Assembly (NCBI GenBank): GCA_963749075.1
Contig: CAVVLJ010000021.1
Span: 352,001 to 416,000 of the forward strand
Reading direction: 5' to 3'
Length of the DNA stretch: 64,000 nt
Origin: an uncultured Pseudomonadota bacterium
Lineage (GTDB): Bacteria; Pseudomonadota; Alphaproteobacteria; JACZXZ01
Positions 14,474 to 37,561 of the stretch are shown here, in pieces. How positions within the stretch are numbered: position 1 is the stretch's first letter; each line of letters starts with the position of its first letter. The translations under genes and the position numbers were made by a program. Under the pieces are notes generated by a model. The model was not told the origin of the DNA, searched no databases, and saw nothing but the letters and a program-made list of their open reading frames with translations.

Positions 14474-14752
14474 ATGGCGATCGCTTGGAACGAGGCAAAG
14501 CGGCGCCGAACCTTGGCGGAACGAGGCCTGGATTTCGCCGACGCGGAGCAGGCGTTCGCGGGCGGCCATTACACCAGCCTCGACGACCGGCGGGACTATG
14601 GCGAGCCGCGATACATCACAGCCGGCTACGTGAAGGGGCGGTTTGTCGTCATTGTCCGGACGCAGCGCGACGGCGGACGGCGCGTCATTTCGATGAGGTA
14701 CGGACATGAGCGGGAAGAAGAGTGCTACAAAGCGCGAACGGCTCGATCCTGA
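14474..14752 (+). CDS. brnT: BrnT family toxin
   Basis: WNEAKRRRTLAERGLDF, DYGEPRYIT, RRVISMR. Confidence 0.9.
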   Translation: MAIAWNEAKRRRTLAERGLDFADAEQAFAGGHYTSLDDRRDYGEPRYITAGYVKGRFVVIVRTQRDGGRRVISMRYGHEREEECYKARTARS

Positions 14753-14969
14753 TGACGCGCCCGAGCTGACCGAAGAGTGGTTCGAGCGTGCCGACTACTT
14801 CGAGGGCGGCAAGCTCGTCCGCCGCGGCCGACCCAAGTCGGCCTCGCCAAAGGAGGCAGTGAGCCTGCGCCTCGATCCCGATGTGCTCGCGCATTTCCGC
14901 GCCACGGGCCCCGGCTGGCAATCGCGCATCAACGCGGCTCTGCGCAAGGCCGCCGGGCTTCGTTCCTGA
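14706..14969 (+). CDS. brnA: BrnA family antitoxin
   Basis: DPDDAPELTEEWF, RGRPK, VSLRLDPDVLAHFRATGPGWQSRINAAL; overlaps brnT. Confidence 0.9.
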   Translation: MSGKKSATKRERLDPDDAPELTEEWFERADYFEGGKLVRRGRPKSASPKEAVSLRLDPDVLAHFRATGPGWQSRINAALRKAAGLRS

Positions 14970-15131
14970 GAACCGGGTCGGGACCATGCCCCGGCAATTG
15001 CGCGCCTCGCGAGCCACCGCCGGGCCGGCGGCGGGTGGTCAAGGGCGGCGCAGCCGTCGGGCCGGCGATGCGCGGCCGCCAGGCCGCGCACCCTTGATGG
15101 CGGGGCGCCAGTCCGATCTGGAGGATTAGAG

Positions 15132-15581
15132 ATGGCATTCGGATACCGCTACGCGTTGCAGCGGCAGGAGAATGGCTGGTGGCTTGTCCGCTTTCCCGGC
15201 ATCCCCGAAGCGCTGACCGAGGGCGAGACCCAGGAGGAGGCCCGCACCAATGCCGTCGACTGCGTGATCACGGCGCTGGAAGGGTACATGAAGGCCGGTA
15301 GGCCGCTGCCGCGACAGGGTGCCGGTCATAACGGGTGCGAGCGGGCGGTGCTGCCGTCTCTCGTCACCGCCAAGCTGGCGGTCTACGAGACGATGCGCGC
15401 CCGCGGCTGGTCCAAGCTGAAGCTGGCCAAGGAGCTCGGTGCGCCTGAGAATTCGGTGCGCCGTCTGCTCGACCTGCGCCACAACTCGCATATGTGGATC
15501 ATCGACGAGGCGCTGGGCAAGATGAATGCCGAACTGACAATCGATTTGCCGAAGGCGAGGGAGCGCGGCAAGGCGGCGTAA
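15132..15581 (+). CDS. hicB: HicB family antitoxin with C-terminal HTH; no intact hicA adjacent
   Basis: LVRFPGIPEALTEGETQEEARTNAVD...GRPLP, KLAVYETMR...KLAKELG...VRRLLDL. Confidence 0.85.
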   Translation: MAFGYRYALQRQENGWWLVRFPGIPEALTEGETQEEARTNAVDCVITALEGYMKAGRPLPRQGAGHNGCERAVLPSLVTAKLAVYETMRARGWSKLKLAKELGAPENSVRRLLDLRHNSHMWIIDEALGKMNAELTIDLPKARERGKAA

Positions 15582-19777: not shown

Positions 19778-20350
19778 ATGAAGAGATTATCCGCATTCGC
19801 CCTCGCCCCCGTCTTCGCCGTTGTCTTCGCCTTGGGCGCCTCGACGCTCGCCGCCCAGACGCAGCTCAAATCGGCGGAGAAACCGCAAGACAAGCAGCCG
19901 GGGCAGAAGGCCACGGTCATCGGCACCTACGGCGAGTGGCAGGCGATCACCTACAAGGAGGGCAGCGCCAACACCTGTTACGTCGCGAGCTATCCCAAGA
20001 AGATGGAGGGCCATCAGAGCAAGCCCGGCGAGGCCAATATCCTGGTCACCCATTGGCCGTCCCAGAAGACCTTCGGCGTGGTGAGCGTCACCGGCGGCTT
20101 CGATTACAAGAAGGACAGCACCGTCGAGCTCGCGATCGGCGACGAGAAGTTCTCGCTCTTCACGCAAGGCTCGCGCGGCTGGGCCAAGGAGGGCGAGGAT
20201 CCCAAGATCGTCAAGGCCTTCAAGTCCGGCAAGGACGCCGTCGCCTCGGGCGTCGCCGCGAGCGGCACCAAGACCAGGGACACCTTCTCGCTCGACGGCT
20301 TCACCAAGGCCTATGAGGAGGCGAGCAAGGCCTGCGGCGTCAAACCATGA
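19778..20350 (+). CDS. Invasion-associated locus B (IalB) family periplasmic protein
   Basis: Signal peptide; GTYGEW, TCYVAS, DTFSLDGFTKAYEEASKAC; usual position upstream of rlmN. Confidence 0.85.
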   Translation: MKRLSAFALAPVFAVVFALGASTLAAQTQLKSAEKPQDKQPGQKATVIGTYGEWQAITYKEGSANTCYVASYPKKMEGHQSKPGEANILVTHWPSQKTFGVVSVTGGFDYKKDSTVELAIGDEKFSLFTQGSRGWAKEGEDPKIVKAFKSGKDAVASGVAASGTKTRDTFSLDGFTKAYEEASKACGVKP

Positions 20351-20428: not shown

Positions 20429-20987
20429 TTATTTGCTCGACAGTCGGGTGATCTGGACGCGCCTGTTGATGCCGGCGGTCGGATTGGCCGTGTCGTAGAG
20501 CTTCAATTTCCCGAAGCCGATCGCGACGAGCTTCTGCGGATCGAGACCGGCGTGGGCGAGGAGGTAATCGCGCACCGTGCCGGCCCTTGCTTCCGAAAGA
20601 CGCTGGTTGTACTCGACGGAGCCGACCGCATCGGTGTGGCCGGCGATCTCGAAGCGAGCGCCGCGCAGGGACGAATCGCTCAGCGCCTTGCCGAGGACGT
20701 TCGAGCGAGATGATCCCGTCATTGGTGAGCCGCGCGGAATTGAACTCGAAATTGACCATGAGGCTCACCGTGGCCGGCTGCTGAGCCGGCTCGTCGCCCT
20801 CGACGGCGACTCCCCGGTTCGGCACGAAGGCGCGTGTGGGAGTGGGTGGATTGAGGCAGCCCACGATCTCGGACGCGGAGAGGGAGCCGGAGCACGCCGG
20901 GGTGGAGTCCGCAGCACTTGCGGGCAGGAGCCGCGCCGCCGTTGCGATGAAGACCGCTATCAGGAGGAGAATGCGCAGGTCAGGCAT
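20429..20987 (-). CDS. OmpA-like peptidoglycan-binding protein, frameshift at ~20700
   Basis: Signal peptide; VNFEFNSARLT then (after removing one base) LDVLGKAL, FEIAGHTDAVGSVEYNQRLSEARA, NRRVQI. Confidence 0.85.
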
Positions 20988-20999
20988 GGCCGTCCCCGC

Positions 21000-22589
21000 T
21001 CACGGCTTGGCCGCGTCGTGCGTCGTCAGAACGACCGTTGCGGCATCGACGACCCGGTCCCGCTGTTTCGGGTCGGGCTTGTACAAGAGCGCCTTGCGCA
21101 GCGCGGTGAGATATTCGCGCTCGGTCATGCTCCGGCCGAGCCCGTCGGCGAAGAGCGGGCTCGCCGATGCCACGGCCACGACCATCTCATGCCCGAATGG
21201 CGGGCCGATGCGGTACTTGCGCCGGTCGTCGTCGCCGCCGAGAACCACGGTGCTGTTCGGCGGCAAGGCGGCCGGGACCGTTCCAAGAGGCTGATAAAGC
21301 TGCACGGCGTCGCCGCCTGCCTGAAGGTAGGTGACATAGACATAGGCGGGATAGGTGGGCGTGCGGAGGCGCAGAATCAGGCGGCTGCCGGCCCCATAGT
21401 CGCCGCCATCGTTGCCGACCGCCGCAAGCTCCAGCCCGCGGCGACGCTTGATCACGTCGTCGAGCGTCATCAGGGCCTCGCACTGCGGCCACGGCCGCAG
21501 CAGCACATCGAATTTCACGTCAACCCCTTCCGGCAATTGCGCAACCGCCTCCTTCAACCGGCCGAAGTCCGTCTCCGACCCCACCCACCCGGAGAGCATG
21601 CCATGCTGCTGGTCCGTCGCGCGCAGCTTCACCCGCGCGCATTTCAGCCCGGCCGCGGCTTCGGAGAGGCTCGCCTGCCATGCCACCGGCTCGGGTTGCG
21701 GCGGCGGTGCCGGCTCCGGAGCGGGTGGTGGCGTCGGCGGAGCGATGTCCGTCACGGTGAACGCGTCGTGGACGCTTGCGAGATAGGCGCCATATGACAT
21801 CCAGCCGAACCCGCGGTCGCCCCAATACGGCCCCCATGAGTTGAAGAACTTGAAGGCCTGACGCGTATCGTCGTGGCCGACGATGACGATGGCGTGGCTG
21901 TCATTCGAGCCGGCGGCGTCGACGTTGTAGATGCCGCCCGGCCCGAGGTGCTTCATGACATAGTCGTTCAGCCTCATGCCGATGACGACCGGATCGCCGG
22001 CCGCGAGGCGCCCTTTCACGTCGTCCAGATTTCCGCGGTCGACGACGGCAAAGCCGAAGATCGTATGCTCGCGCGCGTGCTCCCTCACCGCCGGATCGGG
22101 AAGTGCTGAGCAGAAGCGCGGGTCGTAGGGGAACTCGGCAAGGCTCGCGATGCCGTCGCTTTGCAGCAACACGAGGGCGTCGGAGATGCGCGAGCCGCTG
22201 TTGCATTGGCCGGGCGTGTGGACGATCTGATTGTAGACGAAAGCCGGGCTGAAGAGATTATTGTCGTCGGCAAGCGACGTCCCGCGGCGCAGATGATCGT
22301 AGTAGGTCCTGAGCGCGTAGCCGACCGACCAAGCGACGCAGGAGCCTTGCCTGCCCTGGTCGCGCGGATCGGGGAAGCCGCCCGAGAGGTCCGTTTGCAG
22401 CGGCAGGAACGCCCGGTAGGGCGGCAGGTGCGGCAGCTTGGCGAGCACCGCCGGGTCCTCGGGGATGAGGCCTTGCGTGTAGGCGTGTTGGGGCATAAGT
22501 GCCAGAGCCGCGGCCACGTTGGCGGCGAAGACGATGTTAGAGGCGATTTTCCTTAACTGCGTCGTGTTTCGATCAATCGCATTGTCCAT
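21000..22589 (-). CDS. Papain-like C1 cysteine peptidase with C-terminal DUF4384-like domain
   Basis: QGRQGSCVAWS, SHAIVIVG, FFNSWGPYWGDRGFGW; Pro linker; LRPWPQCEAL, YVYVTYLQAGG...PPFGHEMVVAVAS; start uncertain. Confidence 0.85.
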   Translation of the reverse strand: MDNAIDRNTTQLRKIASNIVFAANVAAALALMPQHAYTQGLIPEDPAVLAKLPHLPPYRAFLPLQTDLSGGFPDPRDQGRQGSCVAWSVGYALRTYYDHLRRGTSLADDNNLFSPAFVYNQIVHTPGQCNSGSRISDALVLLQSDGIASLAEFPYDPRFCSALPDPAVREHAREHTIFGFAVVDRGNLDDVKGRLAAGDPVVIGMRLNDYVMKHLGPGGIYNVDAAGSNDSHAIVIVGHDDTRQAFKFFNSWGPYWGDRGFGWMSYGAYLASVHDAFTVTDIAPPTPPPAPEPAPPPQPEPVAWQASLSEAAAGLKCARVKLRATDQQHGMLSGWVGSETDFGRLKEAVAQLPEGVDVKFDVLLRPWPQCEALMTLDDVIKRRRGLELAAVGNDGGDYGAGSRLILRLRTPTYPAYVYVTYLQAGGDAVQLYQPLGTVPAALPPNSTVVLGGDDDRRKYRIGPPFGHEMVVAVASASPLFADGLGRSMTEREYLTALRKALLYKPDPKQRDRVVDAATVVLTTHDAAKP

Positions 22590-22728
22590 GGAATCTGTCC
22601 GGCCAACCGTGATGTCTTTGCGCCACGTTCCGCCCCGATCGGATGCCGGGAACGCGGACCACTGCATGACCGGTTTCGTCGCAGAAATAGCCGGCACTCC
22701 AATTACCCATTTAGCGCTATCGTCAAGC

Positions 22729-24471
22729 TCATTCGTCGGGGAGGCGTCTCAAAGCGTCCTTGGCCGCTTCATTGCCCTGCGCCGCTGCTAGCTTGTACCA
22801 GTAACGTGCTTGGGCATAGTCCGTCGCGACGCCCTCACCCATGTCGTAAAGATGTCCGACTTGGTACTGCGCCCTGTCATGCCCCTGACCGGCGGCCTTG
22901 CGGTACCAACGCATCGCTTCGGCATAGTCCATCGCCACGCCCCAACCGGTGTAGTAAAGACCTCCGACATTGTACTGGGCCCAGGCATGCCCCTGATCGG
23001 CGGCCTTGCGATACCAACGCATCGCTTCGGCAAAGTCCATCGACACGCCCCAACCCATGCTGTAAAGAATTCCGATGTTGTACTGCGCCTCGGCATTCCC
23101 CTGATCGGCGGCCCTGCGGTACCAACGCATCGCTTCAGCATAGTCCTTCGACACACCCCGACCCATTCCGTAAAGAACTCCGATGTTGTACTGCGCCCCG
23201 GCATCCCCCCGATCAGCCGCCTTGCGGTACCAACGCATCGCTTCGGCATAGTCCTTCGACACACCCCAACCGTTCGCGTAAATTACTCCTATGTGGTTCT
23301 GCGCCAACGCATCCCCCTGATCGGCGGCCTTCCGGAACTGAGCAACGGCGTTACGGAACCAGCGCTCGGCTTCGGCATGGTCCTGAGGTACGCCCGAACC
23401 TTTCTCGTATAGGATGCCAATTTCAAGTTGCGCCTCGGCATCCGCCTCATCGGCAGCCTTGCGTAACCAACGCATCGCTTCGGCAGGGTCTCTCGGCACC
23501 CCTTTTCCCATGGCGTAAAGTCTTCCGATGAAAATCGGTGCCTTGGTATTTTCCTGGTCGGCGGCTTTGAGATACCAACGCATAGCTTCGCCGTAATCTT
23601 TCCTATCTTCGGCTTCCCTTCCTCTGTGAAAGGCCTCTTCCGCCGAAATCGCCGGCTCCGGGACGGATGTAACGACCGCTACCTGCGGGGGCTGGCGCTC
23701 TCCAGCGAAATAGAACTCCCCATCGATGGGCGAAATCGCCACCCAGGGCTGCTGGGACCCGTTGGTGTTCCGATCGACGGTCAAGCCGACCTCGTTGAAC
23801 ATGTGGAGGATGTCGAGACCGGGCTTGCGCATCGCCTCGGCGAGCGCCTTGGTGTAGGGGCTGTTGCCGACGAGGCCGCCGTCGCTCGCCACATTGCCCG
23901 GCTGCGTCGCGTAGGAGATCAGCGTTCCCCTGGGCGCCTTCATCTGGGCGAGGCCGCCGCCGGCGTCCCTCAGGCCGCGCCCGCCGAATGGGTTGTTGCG
24001 GCAGGCGTCGAGGATCATCACGTTGAGCCGCGCACCCGAGGCCTCCATCTGGCGCAGCACGACTCCGGCATCCACGAGCTCGAAGTCCGCGTCGGCCGCC
24101 TGCGTCGGATTGGCGTCGACGGGGGCCAGATAATTGACGCCCTGCAACTGGAGCCCGTGGCCGGCGTAGTAGAAGAGTCCCACGCCGCCCCCGGTGAGCT
24201 GCTCGCGGAACGAGCGGATCGCTTTGTCGAAGGCGGCCTTGTCGAGGTTGAGGAGCGCCCGGTCGCCGACCAAGGTAAAGCCTAAGCTCCTCAGCGTGTC
24301 CGCTATGAGGTTCGCATCGTTGGGCGTATTCGCGAGCCGGGCGGCGTGCTGGTAGTCGGCGTTTCCAATGACCAGTGCTACGCGCCGCTCGGGCGTCTCC
24401 GCCATTGTCTCGGACGAGGCCGCAATGGCCCACATCGCCGCGACAATCAAGTGCCGGAAGAGCGGTCTCAT
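22729..24471 (-). CDS. Caspase-family (peptidase C14) protein with C-terminal Sel1-like repeats, signal peptide
   Basis: RVALVIGNADY, FYYAGHG, ILDACRNNP, SYATQPG; 7 full plus 1 partial Sel1 repeats. Confidence 0.93.
   Translation of the reverse strand: MRPLFRHLIVAAMWAIAASSETMAETPERRVALVIGNADYQHAARLANTPNDANLIADTLRSLGFTLVGDRALLNLDKAAFDKAIRSFREQLTGGGVGLFYYAGHGLQLQGVNYLAPVDANPTQAADADFELVDAGVVLRQMEASGARLNVMILDACRNNPFGGRGLRDAGGGLAQMKAPRGTLISYATQPGNVASDGGLVGNSPYTKALAEAMRKPGLDILHMFNEVGLTVDRNTNGSQQPWVAISPIDGEFYFAGERQPPQVAVVTSVPEPAISAEEAFHRGREAEDRKDYGEAMRWYLKAADQENTKAPIFIGRLYAMGKGVPRDPAEAMRWLRKAADEADAEAQLEIGILYEKGSGVPQDHAEAERWFRNAVAQFRKAADQGDALAQNHIGVIYANGWGVSKDYAEAMRWYRKAADRGDAGAQYNIGVLYGMGRGVSKDYAEAMRWYRRAADQGNAEAQYNIGILYSMGWGVSMDFAEAMRWYRKAADQGHAWAQYNVGGLYYTGWGVAMDYAEAMRWYRKAAGQGHDRAQYQVGHLYDMGEGVATDYAQARYWYKLAAAQGNEAAKDALRRLPDE
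22770..23320 (-). repeat. 108-bp tandem repeats encoding Sel1 units
   Basis: Recurring gtaccaacgcatcgcttcggcatagtcc-type units at 108-bp spacing. Confidence 0.85.
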
Positions 24472-24685
24472 GATACCCGCCGCCTTATGCTTCTTCCTAT
24501 GGCACTCTCCTATCCGAACGAAAAAGCAGCGTCAGTGACGCAGCTCACAATCTTGGGCTGAGAATATCAAAACGGGCGCACGTGCTCAATGAGCAACAGC
24601 ACGGGCTCGAGGCACGGTCCGGCGCCTCCTGAACGATCTCCGCACTCCCGTGATCCGGTCCTGTGACCCGCGAGGCGGCGCATGC

Positions 24686-25762
24686 TCATGACGGATCAAA
24701 GAAGTCGCCGCAGTTGTTTTGCCGGCAAAGATAGACCCCAACGTAGCTGCCATAGGGAAACGGAAGCTCGATTCCGATTGGGGTCTTTGTCGTTCTTATC
24801 CCCAGAACTCTTATCGCCAACACGACCTGCTGTCCCGGCATGGTGAACCGTGTGCTCGGCAGATCGATCACCAGGAGGTCGCCGAACGCCCCCTCAGTCT
24901 CCGACAGCATCTGGGAGAAGTCGGCCCTGACGCCGACCACCTTGTCCTTGAATGGGAACGGGTTCGTTTTGAGCATTTGCGCGCTGGCCCAGGCGACGAC
25001 GCCGTTTGCGGCAATGAAGGCGGCGCGGGCAGTCTTGCGCGCTTCCGCCAGCTCCGCCGCCTCCTTGGCCTCGGCCGCGAGTTTCGCCTCACGCGCAAGC
25101 CGCGCCGCCTCCTCCCGACGCTTCTGCTCCTCTTGTTGCCGCACTCGGCTTGCTTCGGCTTCCGCTTGCCGCCGGCGCTCCTCCGCCGCGGCATAAGCGC
25201 GATCTTCAATATTCGGATTGTTCGGCGACCAATCCCACGTGGCGGTGGCCGCTGGGTCGCTTTTCGCGGCCTTGAACCAGGCCTTTGCGACATACTGCTG
25301 GTCGTAGGACTTGCCGTAGCGCTCGGAGTAGGCCGCTATCTCCTGGTTCCTGTAGAGCAGGACATACACCACAAGCTGGTTCGTGTTGAAATCGCTCGGC
25401 GGCCCCGCCATGGAATACATCCTTGCATCCGGGCAGATCTCCTGAAATTTCGCTGCCGCCTTCCGGGCGACCTCTCTTGCATAGCTCAAATTCTCGAAAC
25501 GCTCGCGAAGGTCATACGGCACGCCCACTACAATCTCGTATGTGGTCGGGAAGCCCGCAAAACCGCGGTAGGCGCACGGGTTGACCCACCCGTGAAGGGG
25601 GTCGTGCATGGCAGGGACGACATAAAAAATTCTAACACCGCCCTCTTCGGCCGTCACTTTCTTGTAGACGGGCGGCGTCTTTATGTCGTTTGCGGCGGCG
25701 CCTCGCGCACAGACAAGTCCGGCTATGCCGATGGCAAGCAACAGCATCAGTCGTCCAAGCAT
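24686..25762 (-). CDS. Hypothetical exported protein with central coiled coil and possible C-terminal OB-fold
   Basis: Signal peptide MLGRLMLLLAIGIAGLVCARGAAA; EERRRQAEAE coiled coil; NPFPFKDKVVGV beta domain; Cys pairs. Confidence 0.65.
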   Translation of the reverse strand: MLGRLMLLLAIGIAGLVCARGAAANDIKTPPVYKKVTAEEGGVRIFYVVPAMHDPLHGWVNPCAYRGFAGFPTTYEIVVGVPYDLRERFENLSYAREVARKAAAKFQEICPDARMYSMAGPPSDFNTNQLVVYVLLYRNQEIAAYSERYGKSYDQQYVAKAWFKAAKSDPAATATWDWSPNNPNIEDRAYAAAEERRRQAEAEASRVRQQEEQKRREEAARLAREAKLAAEAKEAAELAEARKTARAAFIAANGVVAWASAQMLKTNPFPFKDKVVGVRADFSQMLSETEGAFGDLLVIDLPSTRFTMPGQQVVLAIRVLGIRTTKTPIGIELPFPYGSYVGVYLCRQNNCGDFFDPS

Positions 25763-25902
25763 CGTCGCTGCGGCGTCTTGCACGGCGGATGATACTCGAT
25801 GCTGGCTCGCTCCCGAGGGGACCCGGCATCGCCACCCGATTGAGCGAGAAGCAAGCGCGGGCGCGGCCCCATGGCGCGATCGGGGGATTCCGCAGAGCAT
25901 AT

Positions 25903-27402
25903 CTAGGGCGTCAGTCCGCAGGCCTTGCTCGCCCTTGTGTAGGCCTCCCTGAACCCCTCGAGCGAGTAAACATCCCTTGTCCTAGCGCCTTCGGCACTCG
26001 TGCCGGTGACGACAGCCTGCCTGCCAATCTTGAGGGCTTCGACGATCTCGGCGTCGCCTCCAGCCATGGCCCATCCGCGGCTGCCGTTGGTGAAAAGCGA
26101 GAACTTCTCACCGTCGACTACGAGCTCGACGGTGCTGTTCTTCTGATAGTCATAGCCGCTGGTGACGCTGACGATGCCAAAGGTCTTCTGCCTCCGCCAG
26201 TGCGTGACGAGGATATTGGCCTCGCCGGGCTTGCTCTGATGGCCCTCCTCCTTCTTGGGATAGCTCGCGACGTAGCAGGTATCGGTCGCGCCTTCCTTGT
26301 AGGTGATCGCATTCCAATTTCCGAACGTGCCCATCATATTTGCGCGCGGTCCTGAAATCGATAGGTCCGCCACAGGTGGGATTGCTGACACTGCCTTCTG
26401 CGGCGGTGCCGCAACAGCAACCTTCTCTGGCGTCGGCCTCGCCGGCGGCAGCGCCTGAATCCGGTTGCGCGCCAGCGAGGCGAAGGCGCCCGTCGGATAT
26501 TGTTTCAGGTATGCCTCGAAATCCGCCGGGTCCTTGCTGCCCTCGATAAACTCCCAGAATACCGTCTCCTTGTCTGCCGATGGCACGGGCGCGGGCGGGG
26601 TCGGAATCGTGCTGCCGGGCGACAGGCCGGCGAAATAGAACTCTCCGTCAATGGGCGAATGCGATACCCACGGCTGTTGCGATCCGTCCGTCTCGCGGTC
26701 GACGGCCACGCCGACCGAGTTGAACATGTGCAAGATGTCGAGGCCGGGCTTGCGCATCGCGTCCGCAAGCGCCTTGGTATATGGGCTGTTGCCGCCCAGG
26801 CCGCCGTCGCTCGCGACGTTGCCCGGCTGCGTCGCGTACGATATCAGCGTCCCTCGCGGCGCCTTCATTTGCGCGAGGCCGCCGCCGGCGTCGCGAAAAC
26901 CCCGCCCGCCGAAGGGGTTGTTGCGGCAGGCGTCGAGGATCATCACGTTGAGCCGCGCTCCGGACGCGTTCATCTGCCGCAGCACCACCCCCGCGTCCAC
27001 GAGCTCGAAGTCCGCGTCGGCCGCCTGGGTCGGGTTGGCGTTCACTGGTGCTAGATAATTGACTCCCTCCAACTGAAGCCCGTGGCCCGCATAGTAGAAG
27101 AGACCCACAGCGCCGCCGGTGAGTTGCTCGCGGAAGTCGCGAATCGCTTTGTCGAAGGCGGCCTTGTCAAGATCGAGGAGCGCCTGGCCGCCGACAAGTG
27201 TGAAGCCTAGGCTCTTCAATGTATCGGCGATGAGCTTCGCATCGTTAGAGGTATTCGCGAGCCGGGCGGTGTGCTGGTAGTCGGCGTTGCCGATGACGAG
27301 CGCGATGCGTTGCTCGCGGGTATCGGCCGTCGCCTCGAGTGATGCCGTGCCGGTGACGGCCAATATCGCCGCAACGGCCATACGCCGGATAAACGGTCTC
27401 AT
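25903..27402 (-). CDS. Caspase-family protein fused to an IalB domain, signal peptide
   Basis: FYYAGHG and LDACRNNP dyad; FWEFIEGSKDPADFEAYLKQYPTG helical linker; C-terminal domain closely matching the 19778-20350 product. Confidence 0.9.
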   Translation of the reverse strand: MRPFIRRMAVAAILAVTGTASLEATADTREQRIALVIGNADYQHTARLANTSNDAKLIADTLKSLGFTLVGGQALLDLDKAAFDKAIRDFREQLTGGAVGLFYYAGHGLQLEGVNYLAPVNANPTQAADADFELVDAGVVLRQMNASGARLNVMILDACRNNPFGGRGFRDAGGGLAQMKAPRGTLISYATQPGNVASDGGLGGNSPYTKALADAMRKPGLDILHMFNSVGVAVDRETDGSQQPWVSHSPIDGEFYFAGLSPGSTIPTPPAPVPSADKETVFWEFIEGSKDPADFEAYLKQYPTGAFASLARNRIQALPPARPTPEKVAVAAPPQKAVSAIPPVADLSISGPRANMMGTFGNWNAITYKEGATDTCYVASYPKKEEGHQSKPGEANILVTHWRRQKTFGIVSVTSGYDYQKNSTVELVVDGEKFSLFTNGSRGWAMAGGDAEIVEALKIGRQAVVTGTSAEGARTRDVYSLEGFREAYTRASKACGLTP

Positions 27403-27814
27403 GACCCCATCTCGAATCTGGTGTATCAGGCGTTAATCACCCCCGCAGTGACACGAACCGCGACGTAGAGACTATCATGACCCTGGGGCACTCTCAATCA
27501 CAAGTAGCGGCGCGCTAGAATCGTGCCCTGCGCCCCTTGGACGACCGAGCCTGGCGCCAAGGCGTGTGAAACGGATCAGGCTAGCGACGGATCGAGGAAG
27601 CTGTCACGACTTCCCCGTTGACAGGAACAACGGCCGTCGCCATGCGGAAATGGGATCCGAGTCAGGTGACCATGGGGATTCGAGCATTCTGCGAGTTTGC
27701 TTTCCCGCCGGTTGTCACCTACATCCAGGGCAGCAATGACACCTGCGCTGAGGAGGCGGGCAAGGCCTGCGGCGCGAAAGACTAGCAGCCGCCGCCCTTG
27801 CCGCATGAAGAGCC

Positions 27815-28943
27815 ATGAGCGTCGCCGTCGAGCGCGCGTCCGAGACGCAAAAGAACCTGATCGGGCTCAGCCGCGCGGAGCTCGAGGAGGAGCTCGCCGT
27901 CCTCGGCCTCGAGCGCTTCCGCGCCCGCCAGCTCTGGCACTGGATCTATCACCGCGGCGCGCCCGACTTCGCCGCGATGTCCTCGCTCTCGCGCCGGCTG
28001 CGCGAGACGCTCGAGCGGCACTTCACGCTCGCCCGTGCCGTGGCCGTGCGCGACCAGCAGTCCTCGGACGGCACGCGCAAGTGGCTCTTGCGGCTCGCCG
28101 ACGGCAATCTCGTCGAGACCGTGCACATTCCGGAGGAGGACCGCGGCGCCTTGTGCGTCTCCTCGCAAGTCGGCTGCACGCTCACCTGCAAGTTCTGCCA
28201 TACCGGCACGCAGAAGCTCGTGCGCAACCTCGAGGCCGGCGAGATCGTCGGCCAGCTCATGCTGGCGCGCGATGCCATCGGCGAGTGGCCGTCGCCGCGT
28301 GACGGCCGCATGATCTCCAACATCGTGCTCATGGGGATGGGCGAGCCGCTCTACAATTACGAGAACGTCGCGCAAGGCATTGCGCATCGTGATGGATGCG
28401 GACGGCATCGCCATCTCGCGCCGGCGCATCACGCTCTCGACCGCGGGCGTGGTGCCGCAGATCAGGCGCGCGGGTGCCGAGCTCCGCGTCAATCTCGCGG
28501 TCTCCCTCCACGCGGTGACCGACGGCTTGCGCGACGTGATCGTGCCGCTCAACCGCAAATACCCGATCGCGGAGCTCATCGCGGCCTGCCGCGACTATGC
28601 GGCACTCAACCCCAACCGGCGCATCACCTTCGAATACGTCATGCTCAAGGGGGTGAACGACGGTGCGGCCGACGCGCGCGAGCTCCTGCGCCTCATCCGC
28701 GGCATCCCGGCCAAGGTGAACCTCATCCCCTTCAACCCCTGGCCGGGCGCGCCCTTCGAATGCTCGGACGAGGGCGCCATCCGCGCTTTCGCCGACATCG
28801 TGATGAACGCCGGCTATCACGCGCCCGTGCGCACGCCGCGCGGCCGCGACATCCTCGCCGCCTGCGGCCAGCTCAAGTCCGAGAGCCTGCGCGAGCGCGC
28901 CGCCGCGCGCGCGGCCAAGCGCGCGGCGGCGGCGGCATCATGA
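27815..28943 (+). CDS. rlmN: 23S rRNA m2A2503/tRNA methyltransferase RlmN, frameshift at ~28372
   Basis: [25 protein letters not shown]; second frame [30 protein letters not shown]. Confidence 0.93.
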
Positions 28944-29831: not shown

Positions 29832-30263
29832 TCAGCAGGCGATTGCGCGGACGTGGCCTGCGCGCGCATAAGCAAGAATGTGGCGGTCGCGCGTGACGAT
29901 GGGGACGCCGAGCGCGCGTGCCGTGGCGACGAGGAGGCGGTCGCCCGGATCGGCATGGAAGTTTCCCGGAAGTTCGGACGATTCGATGGCGATCTCCGGG
30001 GTGAAGGGGGCGAGCCTGATCCCGGCTTGCGCGAGGAGACGAGCGAACCAGGTCTTCGCGTCGGGGAGGAATTGCACCGGGTGCTTGCGTCGGGCGGCGC
30101 CCAGCAGGCCGATCTCCCAGGCCGACACCACGGACACGAGAACGCCCTCCCCGCGCGCCGCGGCGAGGATCTCATCGTGCCCGCGCGCCTGCATCTCGTC
30201 GCCGTTGGCGACAAAGATCGCGGCACAGGTGTCGAGGAGGAGCGGCCCCGCCGCCGCGCTCAT
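29832..30263 (-). CDS. vapC: VapC/PIN-domain toxin
   Basis: [30 protein letters not shown]. Confidence 0.9.
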
Positions 30264-30532
30264 CCGTGGATGCGCCCCTTGCGCGCGGAGAGCGGCTCGT
30301 CGAGCACGGGGGCGGTAAGATCGACAGCCGGCGGCACGCGCACGCTGCCGCGCATGCAGCCGAAAAGCGCTTCCGCCTCATGGCCGCGGTCGAACGGAGT
30401 CAGCACCGCCATGGGCCGTCCGCGCTTGGTGATGATGAGTCGGTTGAGCTTGCCCTGCTGAAGGCGCTCCAGGAGTGCGAGGCAGGTTGCCTTGAAGGCG
30501 CTCGCGCTGATGGTCTCTCCGGCGTCGCGCAT
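30260..30532 (-). CDS. Phd/YefM antitoxin
   Basis: [27 protein letters not shown]; 4-bp overlap with vapC. Confidence 0.88.
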
Positions 30533-30550
30533 GGTCATCTCCATATGTCT

Positions 30551-35919: not shown

Positions 35920-36708
35920 CTATCGGGGGGGCGGCGCGCCGCGGCCGATGGCGACCACCAGACCCTCGCGGAAGAGCCCGGCCAAGGCCGCCGCGAGATC
36001 GAAGCCGGCGTCCTCGGCGAGTGCCGCATCCGTTGCGGCGGCGAGCTCTTGGCCTGCCTGGAGTGCTGCGCGGAAGGCGAGCGCGGCTGCCGGCAGCGCG
36101 CGCATCACGACGTCGCCGCCGCTCCGCCGCACCGCGAGCCGGGCGCCGCCGGCGGCGAGGTCGACGGCGGCGCTCTCCCCGCTCGCCGAGCGGTTGGCGC
36201 GCCAGATGCGGTCGATGGGAAAGCGCGAGGCGATGAGCCCGAGCGAGGGATGCAGGCCGAGGACGAGACGCGGGGTGTCCGCTGCCGCCACGCCCTCGAG
36301 TGCCTCGGGCGCCAGCGCCGCCGCATCGGGGGCATGGGCTGCGCGATGCATGAGCCATTCGAGGCGCGCCACGTCGGCGAGATAGACGTGCTCGCGGCAC
36401 GGCGGGAACGCCGCGAGGAATTGCGGGAAACCGCCGCCGTACTCGAGGAGGCAGGGCTGCGCCGGCGGCTCGAGCGCGATGAAGGCCTGCGCCGCATGGG
36501 CGAAGAAGGGCTCGCCCACGAGGCGGCGCACCGCGGGAAAGGCGTCTTCGAGGAGGCCCGCGAGGGAGGAGCGGACATTGTCGCGGTAGACCGCGAGGCG
36601 CTCCGCCACGGCGAGCCCGTCGGGCCGCACGAAAGCGGCGAGCCCCGCGGCGTCGTCCTCGAGGAGGGCGCGGCGGAAGGCGATCTGCAGCTCAGCGAGC
36701 GTCGGCAT
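35920..36708 (-). CDS. DUF2063 (HvfC/BufC-like) MNIO partner protein
   Basis: LAELQIAFRRALL, RLAVYRDNV, FPAVRRLVGEPFF, YGGGFPQFL, YLADVARLEW. Confidence 0.88.
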   Translation of the reverse strand: MPTLAELQIAFRRALLEDDAAGLAAFVRPDGLAVAERLAVYRDNVRSSLAGLLEDAFPAVRRLVGEPFFAHAAQAFIALEPPAQPCLLEYGGGFPQFLAAFPPCREHVYLADVARLEWLMHRAAHAPDAAALAPEALEGVAAADTPRLVLGLHPSLGLIASRFPIDRIWRANRSASGESAAVDLAAGGARLAVRRSGGDVVMRALPAAALAFRAALQAGQELAAATDAALAEDAGFDLAAALAGLFREGLVVAIGRGAPPPR

Positions 36709-37561
36709 CGGCGGCGAGCGTCCTTGCGGCAACGGCTGCAGCACACCTTGCCTCGGCGAGGAGCGTCGCCCAGGGCGGCAGGTTGCGATCCCATTCGATG
36801 AGGCTCGGCACCATGCCGAAGCGCTCGAGTGCCTGGCGGTAGAGCGCCCAGACCTCGCCCGTCACCCGCGAGCCGTGATCGTCGATGAGGAGCGGGCGGC
36901 CATGGCGCTCGCCGCGGAAATGGCCGGCGAGGTGGATCTCGCCCACCGCTTCGGCCGGAAGTGCTTCGAGATAGGCCGCAGGGTCCTCGGCGAAATTGCT
37001 GCAGCTCACGAAGATGTTGTTCACGTCGCAGAGGATGCCGCAGCCGGTCGCGCGCGCGAGCTCGGCCAGGAACTCGGGCTCCGGAATCGGCGAGTGGCGG
37101 AAGCGCAGATAGCTAGCGGGGTTCTCGACGAGGATGCGCCGCTTGAGCGCCTCCTGCACGGCCGCGATGTTGCGGCCGACCGCGGCGAGCGCCTCCTCGC
37201 TATAAGGGAGCGGCAGGAGATCGTTGAGATAGCTCCCGCCCGCGACGCTCCAGGCGAGATGCTCGGAGACGAGGAAGGGCTCGCTCGCCGCCGCGAGATC
37301 CTTGAGCCGCGCCAAGTGCAGCGGATCGACGCCCTCCGCCGTGCCGAGCGAGAGGCCGACGGCGTGGAGTGACAGCCGGTAGTCGCGGCGCACCGCGAGG
37401 AGCCGGGCCAAGGCCGGGCCGCTCGCCATGTAGTTCTCGGGGTGGACCTCGAACCAGCCCATGGCGGGACGGCCCGCCAGCACCTCGGCGACGTGCGGCG
37501 CGCGCAAGCCAACCCCGACTTGCGCGGCAATCGCCAGAGCGCTCTCCGCCGCCCGCTTCAT
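36692..37561 (-). CDS. DUF692 multinuclear non-heme iron oxidative enzyme (MNIO, BufB-like)
   Basis: GVGLRAPH, EVHPENY, SEHLAW, LVENPASY, DVNNIFV, EIHLAGH, IDDHGS, IEWD. Confidence 0.92.
   Translation of the reverse strand: MKRAAESALAIAAQVGVGLRAPHVAEVLAGRPAMGWFEVHPENYMASGPALARLLAVRRDYRLSLHAVGLSLGTAEGVDPLHLARLKDLAAASEPFLVSEHLAWSVAGGSYLNDLLPLPYSEEALAAVGRNIAAVQEALKRRILVENPASYLRFRHSPIPEPEFLAELARATGCGILCDVNNIFVSCSNFAEDPAAYLEALPAEAVGEIHLAGHFRGERHGRPLLIDDHGSRVTGEVWALYRQALERFGMVPSLIEWDRNLPPWATLLAEARCAAAVAARTLAADADAR

Follow-up and report, generated by a model that had tools for sequence, protein, structure and literature searches.

The 64,000-nucleotide window analysed here (contig CAVVLJ010000021.1, positions 352,001 to 416,000, assembly GCA_963749075.1, from an uncultured alphaproteobacterium) carries an island of five minus-strand genes at 20429-27402, flanked on the left by ialB and on the right by rlmN, both on the plus strand. 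The island encodes two C14 (caspase-type) proteases, a papain-type C1A peptidase ending in DUF4384, an OmpA-C protein and an accessory protein. The best reading is a mobile protease module of the periplasm, present here in one of its versions, with three core parts: a C14 protease, the C1A-DUF4384 peptidase as a zymogen, and a small wall anchor of OmpA-C type. We put at about 0.45 the probability that these form a cascade in the periplasm, with the caspase cleaving the wall anchor and processing the papain to its mature form. In the loci compared, the three core genes travel together, keep their predicted catalytic and wall-binding residues and share an arginine motif. An initial annotation had described five co-oriented genes between ialB and rlmN and proposed an envelope-tethered proteolytic system; the arrangement is as described, and co-occurrence beyond chance, predicted export and the kept residues make the proposal a fair reading. 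The genes and the two candidate cut sites are as follows.

25903-27402, minus strand: C14-IalB protease, 499 residues, with a Pfam match and a signal-peptide-like start
24686-25762, minus strand: accessory protein, 358 residues, predicted to be exported, no Pfam family, outside the recurring core
22729-24471, minus strand: C14 protease with eight Sel1 repeats (C14-Sel1, Pfam), 580 residues, predicted to be exported
21000-22589, minus strand: C1A-DUF4384 peptidase (Pfam Peptidase_C1 and DUF4384), 529 residues from the database start
22413-22415, minus strand: C1A Arg59 at the propeptide end (Y-R-A-F-L-P), invariant, predicted caspase cut site
20429-20987, minus strand: OmpA-C protein of peptidoglycan-binding type, DUF4384-linked subfamily, with an apparent frameshift near 20700
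20799-20837, minus strand: OmpA double-arginine linker motif (T-R-A-F ... R-G-V-x-V-E, residues 51-63), predicted caspase cut site

Scanning GTDB genomes yielded 449 confirmed C1A relatives, of which the best 80 were kept, and locus partners were called with local profiles built from those same neighbours. A C-terminal DUF4384-type module is present in 45 of the 80 loci and absent in 35. Among the 45, an OmpA gene occurs in 32 (within 1.5 kb in 30), a C14 or CHAT protease lies within 10 kb in 29 (26 C14, 3 CHAT), and 24 have both; the loci lacking both include five from Devosia. Neither partner was found near any of the 35 relatives without the module, a control set drawn mostly from other taxa, with three loci cut by contig ends and related genomes that are not independent. 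When the neighbours were checked against Pfam, C14 was found in 41 of the 44 submitted clusters and CHAT in three (two short fragments excluded). Carriers of C1A-DUF4384 belong to the Alpha-, Beta- and Gammaproteobacteria and to Binatia; cultured carriers of the core are Methylobacterium aerolatum DSM 19013 (L033), Flavimaribacter sediminis WL0058 (L024) and, by a table in a 2012 survey, Ruegeria sp. TM1040 (PMC3501461; papers are cited here for the parts consulted). The recurring clusters of caspase, C1-DUF4384 and OmpA that the initial annotation suggested looking for do exist (30/45 and 29/45 against 0/35), but its five-gene set as a conserved unit had to be rejected, as the accessory protein and the IalB domain stand beside none of the 80 other C1A loci. 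Judged by these neighbourhoods, the recurring unit is a predicted exported C14 protease, a C1A-DUF4384 peptidase and an OmpA-C protein, three of the five genes, and the accessory protein and the IalB fusion are local additions.

A second sample was chosen independently of C1A. DUF4384 gave 54 matches in 38 of 401 alphaproteobacterial genomes, and 40 regions covering 47 of these matches were taken; this genome, two congeners and three weak matches were not included. Within about 7 kb of DUF4384, OmpA occurs in 23 and C14 or CHAT in 17 of the 40 regions, where this genome's own gene densities give a chance expectation of about 0.04 per such window. Fusion partners of DUF4384 are kinases, C1A (two proteins), trypsin-C14, C14, peptidoglycan-binding lipoproteins and, once, OmpA-C14, in a single OmpA-C14-DUF4384 protein at L158:5721-7754. 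The OmpA subfamily is present in 30 of the 401 genomes, 23 of them DUF4384-positive, and C14 occurs in 27 of the 29 other genomes with the subfamily versus 32/151 in the class.

The C1A peptidase runs from an export signal through a short propeptide, the catalytic domain and a proline linker to a module of about 220 residues ending in DUF4384, and its catalytic residues Q78, C84, H232 and N250 are intact. Its structure model (predicted local distance difference test, pLDDT, 92; predicted template modelling score 0.87) is closest to xylellain (PDB 3OIS; Z 31.4, 1.9 Å, 235 aligned, residues 37-283, propeptide included) and also aligns to several pro-forms from about residue 30, which places it, as modelled, in the papain fold of xylellain type with Gln-Cys-His-Asn. 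More than 100 full-length C1A-DUF4384 homologues are among the 120 matches listed, and an atlas search with the module returned DUF4384 clusters. A complex prediction for the DUF4384 module and the OmpA protein of an intact pair (L026) scored 0.45 versus 0.36 for the control and was counted neither way. Elsewhere in the genome (L012:6689-7957), a cytoplasmic-looking C1A peptidase lies beside a chagasin-family (I42) inhibitor, and a similar pair occurs in two same-genus genomes (L095, L096).

Both caspases contain a Peptidase_C14 domain (Pfam E 1.7e-36 and 1.2e-35) and keep YAGHG and LDAC, the His-Cys dyad being H107 and C159 in C14-IalB and H105 and C157 in C14-Sel1; these dyads and the four C1A residues had been correctly recognised at the outset. 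The two caspase domains are 89.5% identical, and their ratio of nonsynonymous to synonymous substitution rates (dN/dS) of 0.10 indicates purifying selection. In C14-IalB, the signal-peptide-like start and caspase domain are followed by a short helical hairpin and a C-terminal IalB domain (about residues 354-499, window 25903-26343). The sequence-based search for solved relatives returned MALT1 chains in 10 of 10 matches (best E 1.6e-12). MALT1 requires arginine at P1, with a pocket formed by Asp365, Asp462 and Glu500 (PMC4357240, PMC3304489). Acidic residues occupy the corresponding positions in C14-IalB (D54, D157, D199), in C14-Sel1 (D52, D155, D197) and in 31, 40 and 34 of 40 neighbouring caspases, the positions having been mapped by alignment and the third extrapolated two residues beyond the printed alignment. 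The island caspases are therefore predicted to have the acidic S1 pocket of MALT1, and we infer that they share its arginine specificity.

The metacaspase pocket cysteine (TbMCA2 C92) is a threonine in the island caspases when aligned by eye; a review holds this cysteine important for metacaspase activity and cautions that an intact His-Cys dyad is no proof of activity (PMC5756287). MALT1 likewise has no cysteine there in the printed alignment, and the dyad histidine is kept in 37 and the cysteine in all 40 of the neighbouring caspases, which had been selected by having the cysteine motif. Nine close C14 paralogues elsewhere in this genome (L002-L011) end in Sel1, TonB_C, FGE, YfiO or SH3-type tails, and some are broken by apparent frameshifts. 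The helical hairpin C-terminal to the caspase domain, 45 residues long, recurs in TIR-SH3 proteins.

The OmpA domain carries the residues G-H-T-D ... R, which we take to be wall-binding. The gene is split by the frameshift near 20700, most likely an assembly error, because two short-read contigs almost identical to this DNA (673 bp, depth 4.1; 388 bp, depth 3.4), from two runs of one study and possibly from the source sample, are one base shorter at this site and because the two halves match successive family-profile positions (1-58 and 62-148). A degenerate pseudogene was considered and rejected in view of the same contigs. No named NCBIfam OmpA family could be assigned, as all matches of the three subfamily proteins tested fell under the curated cut-offs. 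In a crude hydrophobicity test, an uncharged hydrophobic N-terminal stretch was found in all five island proteins, in line with the signal peptides proposed in the initial annotation, and in 69/86 C1A homologues, 26/30 OmpA proteins and 29/39 caspases; the test is permissive, being also positive in 227/672 other neighbouring proteins. Export of the island proteins is likely. Promoter and terminator scans gave no signal above chance level.

An arginine followed by a small and a hydrophobic residue links the three core proteins. Arg-(Gly/Ser/Ala)-hydrophobic occurs in the caspase loop after the catalytic cysteine in 34 of 38 proteins and in the OmpA linker, which joins a short helix to the wall-binding domain, in 29 of 30, with two copies in 20; random windows contain one copy in 11% and two in 0.6% of cases. 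In C1A-DUF4384 the propeptide-end arginine is invariant (86/86), and in the locus set it is found in 30/31 peptidases with the module versus 8/25 without. The residue after Arg59 is Ala, Gly or Ser in 22/28 loci with a nearby caspase versus 5/14 without, counts in which four unparsed rows were scored as misses, three loci lacked the segment and the five Devosia loci are not independent. No prediction of arginine-motif substrates was found in the literature searched, where most subscription journals lay outside coverage. At L228:6031-7306, two tandem OmpA-subfamily genes lie beside a kinase and a phosphatase-like gene, and one of their linkers contains Thr-Arg-(Gly/Ala) three times.

In the cascade we favour, the variable C-terminal domains (Sel1, IalB) would bind a trigger and bring the protease domains together. 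Activation of MALT1 proceeds through dimerisation and requires no loop cleavage (PMC4357240, PMC3304489). The activated, arginine-specific caspase would cut after the motif arginines; a cut in the OmpA linker would remove the N-terminal piece of the wall anchor, and removal of the C1A propeptide would make the papain the downstream effector near the wall. The IalB fusion and the accessory protein may widen the range of recognised targets. The weakest step is the setting, which may be damage to the envelope or an encounter with a competitor or predator; it is suggested because the sister module described below is linked to a type VI secretion system (T6SS), the binding tails are variable and the accessory family includes lysozyme-inhibitor fusions.

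Several observations weigh against this cascade, in addition to the control set, the extrapolated pocket position and the replaced pocket cysteine noted above. The same pattern is conserved within the C1A catalytic helix (R94, 81/86), so the motif can be structural, and the equivalent loop of MALT1 need not be cut (PMC4357240). Arg59 is kept in the caspase-free Devosia loci and in seven Henriciella/Hyphomonas C1A peptidases without the module, and the OmpA motif is kept in T6SS-kinase loci without a neighbouring caspase. In two motif-bearing genomes (G005, G376) no C14 was found, only CHAT. In the wider OmpA set, Arg-Gly is present in 15/30, so about half are without it. The genome search with the OmpA alignment (eight candidates per genome scored) used a profile that itself includes the motif, which makes motif counts from that search circular in part.

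It is less probable, yet not far-fetched, that the genes cooperate while the arginine motif serves for docking or as a pseudo-substrate and is not cut, and that the C1A peptidase activates itself. The OmpA linker might then occupy the caspase pocket, holding the enzyme off and at the wall, or add a strand to the DUF4384 module. Arg-Gly-hydrophobic-x-Val does resemble a short strand and is kept in the kinase-DUF4384/T6SS loci without an adjacent caspase, no gene keeps closer to the DUF4384 module than OmpA, in C1A fusions and kinase fusions alike, and the gingipain prodomain puts an arginine into its own pocket as an inhibitor (PMC4357240). A docking site explains less well why the motif stands in three unrelated proteins of the module and why the small P1' residue of C1A tracks a caspase neighbour, and both motif-bearing genomes without C14 do encode a CHAT protease.

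The genes might also form a loose cluster, held together by shared regulation and mobility but acting separately, for example in general periplasmic or extracellular proteolysis, with the caspases supplied by a genome-wide expansion. Of the 13 C14 matches in this genome, most are distant from any C1A, and some other genomes have up to 19; caspase gene order and orientation differ among loci, and 16 of the 45 loci have no nearby caspase. The intergenic gaps down the island are 140, 214, 139 and 12 bp, the upstream genes being separated by 139-214 bp. Such a cluster is improbable given the absence of either partner from all 35 control loci and the occurrence of OmpA-C14-DUF4384 and C14-DUF4384 fusions. 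Moreover, the island caspases fall in one clade (FastTree support 0.999) with caspases flanking C1A-DUF4384 in L021, L041 and L043, and L021 has the island's gene order (caspase-Sel1, C1A, OmpA). That the caspase domains are inactive or nearly inactive scaffolds binding arginine peptides, with C1A as the sole working protease, would suit the periplasm, which does not typically offer the reducing conditions favourable to cysteine proteases, but it is the least probable reading in view of the conserved dyads and the activity of MALT1 without the pocket cysteine.

A wider proposal builds on the cascade and is, in our view, doubtful: exported MALT1-like caspases would run a general bacterial periplasmic cascade with the arginine motif as an address tag. 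One trigger would cut wall-bound OmpA together with any DUF4384-wired zymogen, and outputs would be interchangeable, a papain here and a trypsin or a T6SS-linked kinase elsewhere. Capture of IalB, a housekeeping periplasmic protein, at the insertion site would then be a rewiring of the sensor.

The island appears to have arrived as a cassette inserted at ialB, because ialB and rlmN are adjacent in relatives, a relative's contig joins the two borders, the base composition shifts and three ialB-derived pieces lie in and around the island: the intact gene, the domain fused to the first caspase and a collapsed remnant. The flanking features are listed here.

19778-20350, plus strand: resident ialB, left flank, IalB family, from which family the IalB domain on the first caspase derives
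27714-27785, plus strand: collapsed ialB remnant at the right border, a piece of the N-terminal part joined to the last codons
27815-28943, plus strand: rlmN-like gene, right flank, named from the first reading, with an apparent frameshift near 28372

The remnant holds a 31-bp direct repeat of 20314-20344 (90% identical). The two flanking genes are directly adjacent in 5/5 same-genus genomes and in 3/5 other family members, where one contig ends at the gene and one shows no adjacency; one relative's contig runs from 20344 straight to 27851 without the island. The G+C content at third codon positions is 0.73-0.83 in the island against 0.90-0.93 in five flanking genes, and a full C1A-DUF4384 match was found in none of 40 relatives. 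The insertion proposed in the initial annotation is thus borne out. The fused IalB domain is 66% identical to the neighbouring IalB, with a dN/dS of 0.38 similar to that of orthologues (0.42). It falls inside the genus group on a long branch (support 93/93, unstarred), and its synonymous divergence from the neighbouring ialB (0.63) exceeds that between orthologues (0.28); the tree and these distances leave an origin from this very neighbour unproven, and the domain may have been captured in a congener and then transferred. A second IalB-type match was present in this genome alone among 41 genomes searched. Other long IalB-domain proteins numbered 0 among 385 candidates, in a search that also missed the window's own protein (cluster representative 195 residues). 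Taken together, the cassette probably came in at ialB, and the caspase gained its IalB tail in this lineage or a congener.

Frameshifts near window 28372 in rlmN and in a kinase-DUF4384 gene at L001:9280-9841 suggest assembly indel errors. Toxin-antitoxin genes lie near the island at 14706-15578 and 29835-30544 (a BrnA antitoxin; a PIN protein with a Phd-type antitoxin), and a gene of the MbnB/TglH/ChrH family (modification of ribosomally synthesised and post-translationally modified peptides) with a DUF2063 partner lies at 35923-37561.

The accessory protein consists of an N-terminal alpha/beta domain, a coiled coil and a C-terminal domain (residues 248-358, pLDDT above 90) that is modelled as an oligonucleotide/oligosaccharide-binding (OB) fold. 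A structure search with this domain gave as best match Ten1 (Z 9.5, root-mean-square deviation 2.9, 87 aligned), with YgiW at Z 7.2, the top rows being OB-type; the best Foldseek E was 1.7e-3, and no family is named because the Z scores are middling. The Pfam assignments expected from the initial annotation (C14, Sel1, Peptidase_C1, DUF4384 and OmpA) were all recovered, with IalB in addition, this protein alone matching no family. Its OB domain belongs to a large, unnamed family with variable N-termini (461 clusters at E 0.001; P0129-P0278). Lysozyme inhibitors are fused to the domain in 8 of 111 members scanned (7 LprI, 1 Ivy), and other fusions include Sel1, TPR, peptidoglycan-binding, SPOR and M23 domains. 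An atlas search with the domain gave only leads under 0.9. A lipoprotein signal was considered and rejected, as no canonical lipobox was seen by eye.

A second DUF4384 locus in this genome (L001:8177-18001; G000:C20, about 500200-510000) encodes a Ser/Thr kinase with DUF4384 in two frames, an OmpA-subfamily protein with the Arg-Gly motif and a STY0301-family protein, and it is followed by the T6SS genes tssA, tssB, two tssC, impE and tssE. We take this locus to be comparable to the input module of T6SS threonine phosphorylation, in which a PpkA-type kinase has periplasmic partners. The same DUF4384 module and OmpA subfamily, with a kinase fusion directly before tssA/B/C, occur in other genomes as well. 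Same-genus genomes have the kinase-DUF4384 gene, two of them (L124, L125) with an adjacent OmpA gene and no T6SS gene within the 20 kb fetched. Kinase-DUF4384 is a known architecture (10.1101/2025.01.12.632604). In contrast, neither a kinase nor T6SS core genes are among the island genes or the 49 other window genes scanned, and the output of the island is predicted to be a periplasmic papain rather than a cytoplasmic kinase. At L159, L160, L162, L164, L167 and L168, a lipoprotein, often peptidoglycan-binding, ends in DUF4384, has an N-terminal domain that Pfam leaves unassigned, and is accompanied by the OmpA subfamily; the same loci encode exported repeat proteins of small size and low complexity, and in many cases a caspase or a CHASE2 cyclase as well. 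The lipoprotein domains fused to DUF4384 may be CsgG- or FlgO-like, but Pfam at 1e-4 gave no confirmation and they are left unnamed. The L158 fusion adjoins three stand-alone DUF4384 genes and a second caspase.

Other known systems share parts of this composition. Bacterial C14 homologues, the orthocaspases, likewise have a His-Cys dyad and an acidic pocket (PMC3501461, PMC5756287, PMC6426788), and their C-terminal domains are similarly variable (Sel1, WD40, FGE, peptidoglycan-binding); cyanobacterial MaOC1 was the only biochemically characterised orthocaspase as of a 2017 review (PMC5756287). MALT1 (MEROPS C14B), the nearest solved relative by sequence, shares the acidic S1 positions but is cytoplasmic, with Ig and death domains and a scaffold complex, whereas the island caspases are predicted to be exported and carry Sel1 or IalB. 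Xylellain-type C1A resembles the modelled peptidase in fold, short N-terminal extension and catalytic residues, and the island enzyme differs in its export signal, invariant propeptide arginine, DUF4384 module and fixed partners. A 2023 C1A family survey set multidomain prokaryotic members aside unanalysed (PMC10380794). DUF4384 has been linked to proteases, kinases and Csx30; in type III-E CRISPR, the CHAT protease Csx29 cleaves Csx30, which in some groups ends in a DUF4384 domain (10.1101/2022.08.17.504292), but that system is cytoplasmic, RNA-triggered and linked to a sigma factor, and the island has no CRISPR or sigma gene. Gingipain R and clostripain, secreted maturases of clan CD, likewise have a caspase fold and arginine specificity; they act beyond the cytoplasm, undergo processing at arginine and in turn process surface proteins (PMC4357240, PMC3482391), but they belong to families C25 and C11 and have no DUF4384 or OmpA partners.

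The island caspases scored 57.6 and 59 bits against an EACC1-type caspase model, below its cut-off of 140, and PADLOC returned only its generic caspase model (E 3e-10) and a weak ZorB/MotB match for OmpA. Partner genes of the EACC1-caspase, gasdermin-caspase, Craspase and PADLOC systems were absent from the window genes scanned. The C-termini in the island (Sel1, IalB, DUF4384, OB fold) are also not those of polymorphic toxins as outlined in the relevant parts of PMC3482391.

The premise that exported bacterial caspases had gone unnoticed was too strong. The 2012 survey reports N-terminal helices or signal peptides in many prokaryotic caspases, OmpA in 14 of 217 caspase operons and a Rhizobium operon of OmpA, caspase, trypsin and serpin, and its supplement places an OmpA-containing caspase of Ruegeria sp. 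TM1040 (YP_612838.1) beside a C1A peptidase (YP_612837.1), uncommented (PMC3501461). The consulted parts of that survey contain no C1A-DUF4384/OmpA/caspase unit, shared motif or substrate, and those of PMC3482391, PMC7159879 and PMC10380794 do not describe this unit. The literature search for the unit found no description within its coverage, which left out most subscription journals, so one may exist elsewhere. What the island adds is a three-gene core, real, mobile and recurring, that carries local additions and belongs to the known but uncharacterised class of bacterial operons for exported caspases.

The substrates of exported bacterial caspases have been an open question since the 2012 survey. 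The module names two candidate substrates to the residue (OmpA R52 and R58, C1A R59), together with a predicted specificity for arginine, and the shared motif makes the question accessible to a few point mutants and a gel. If the proposed cascade is correct, bacteria would have an extracytoplasmic pathway leading from a caspase to a cathepsin, and both DUF4384 and this OmpA subfamily would gain a function.

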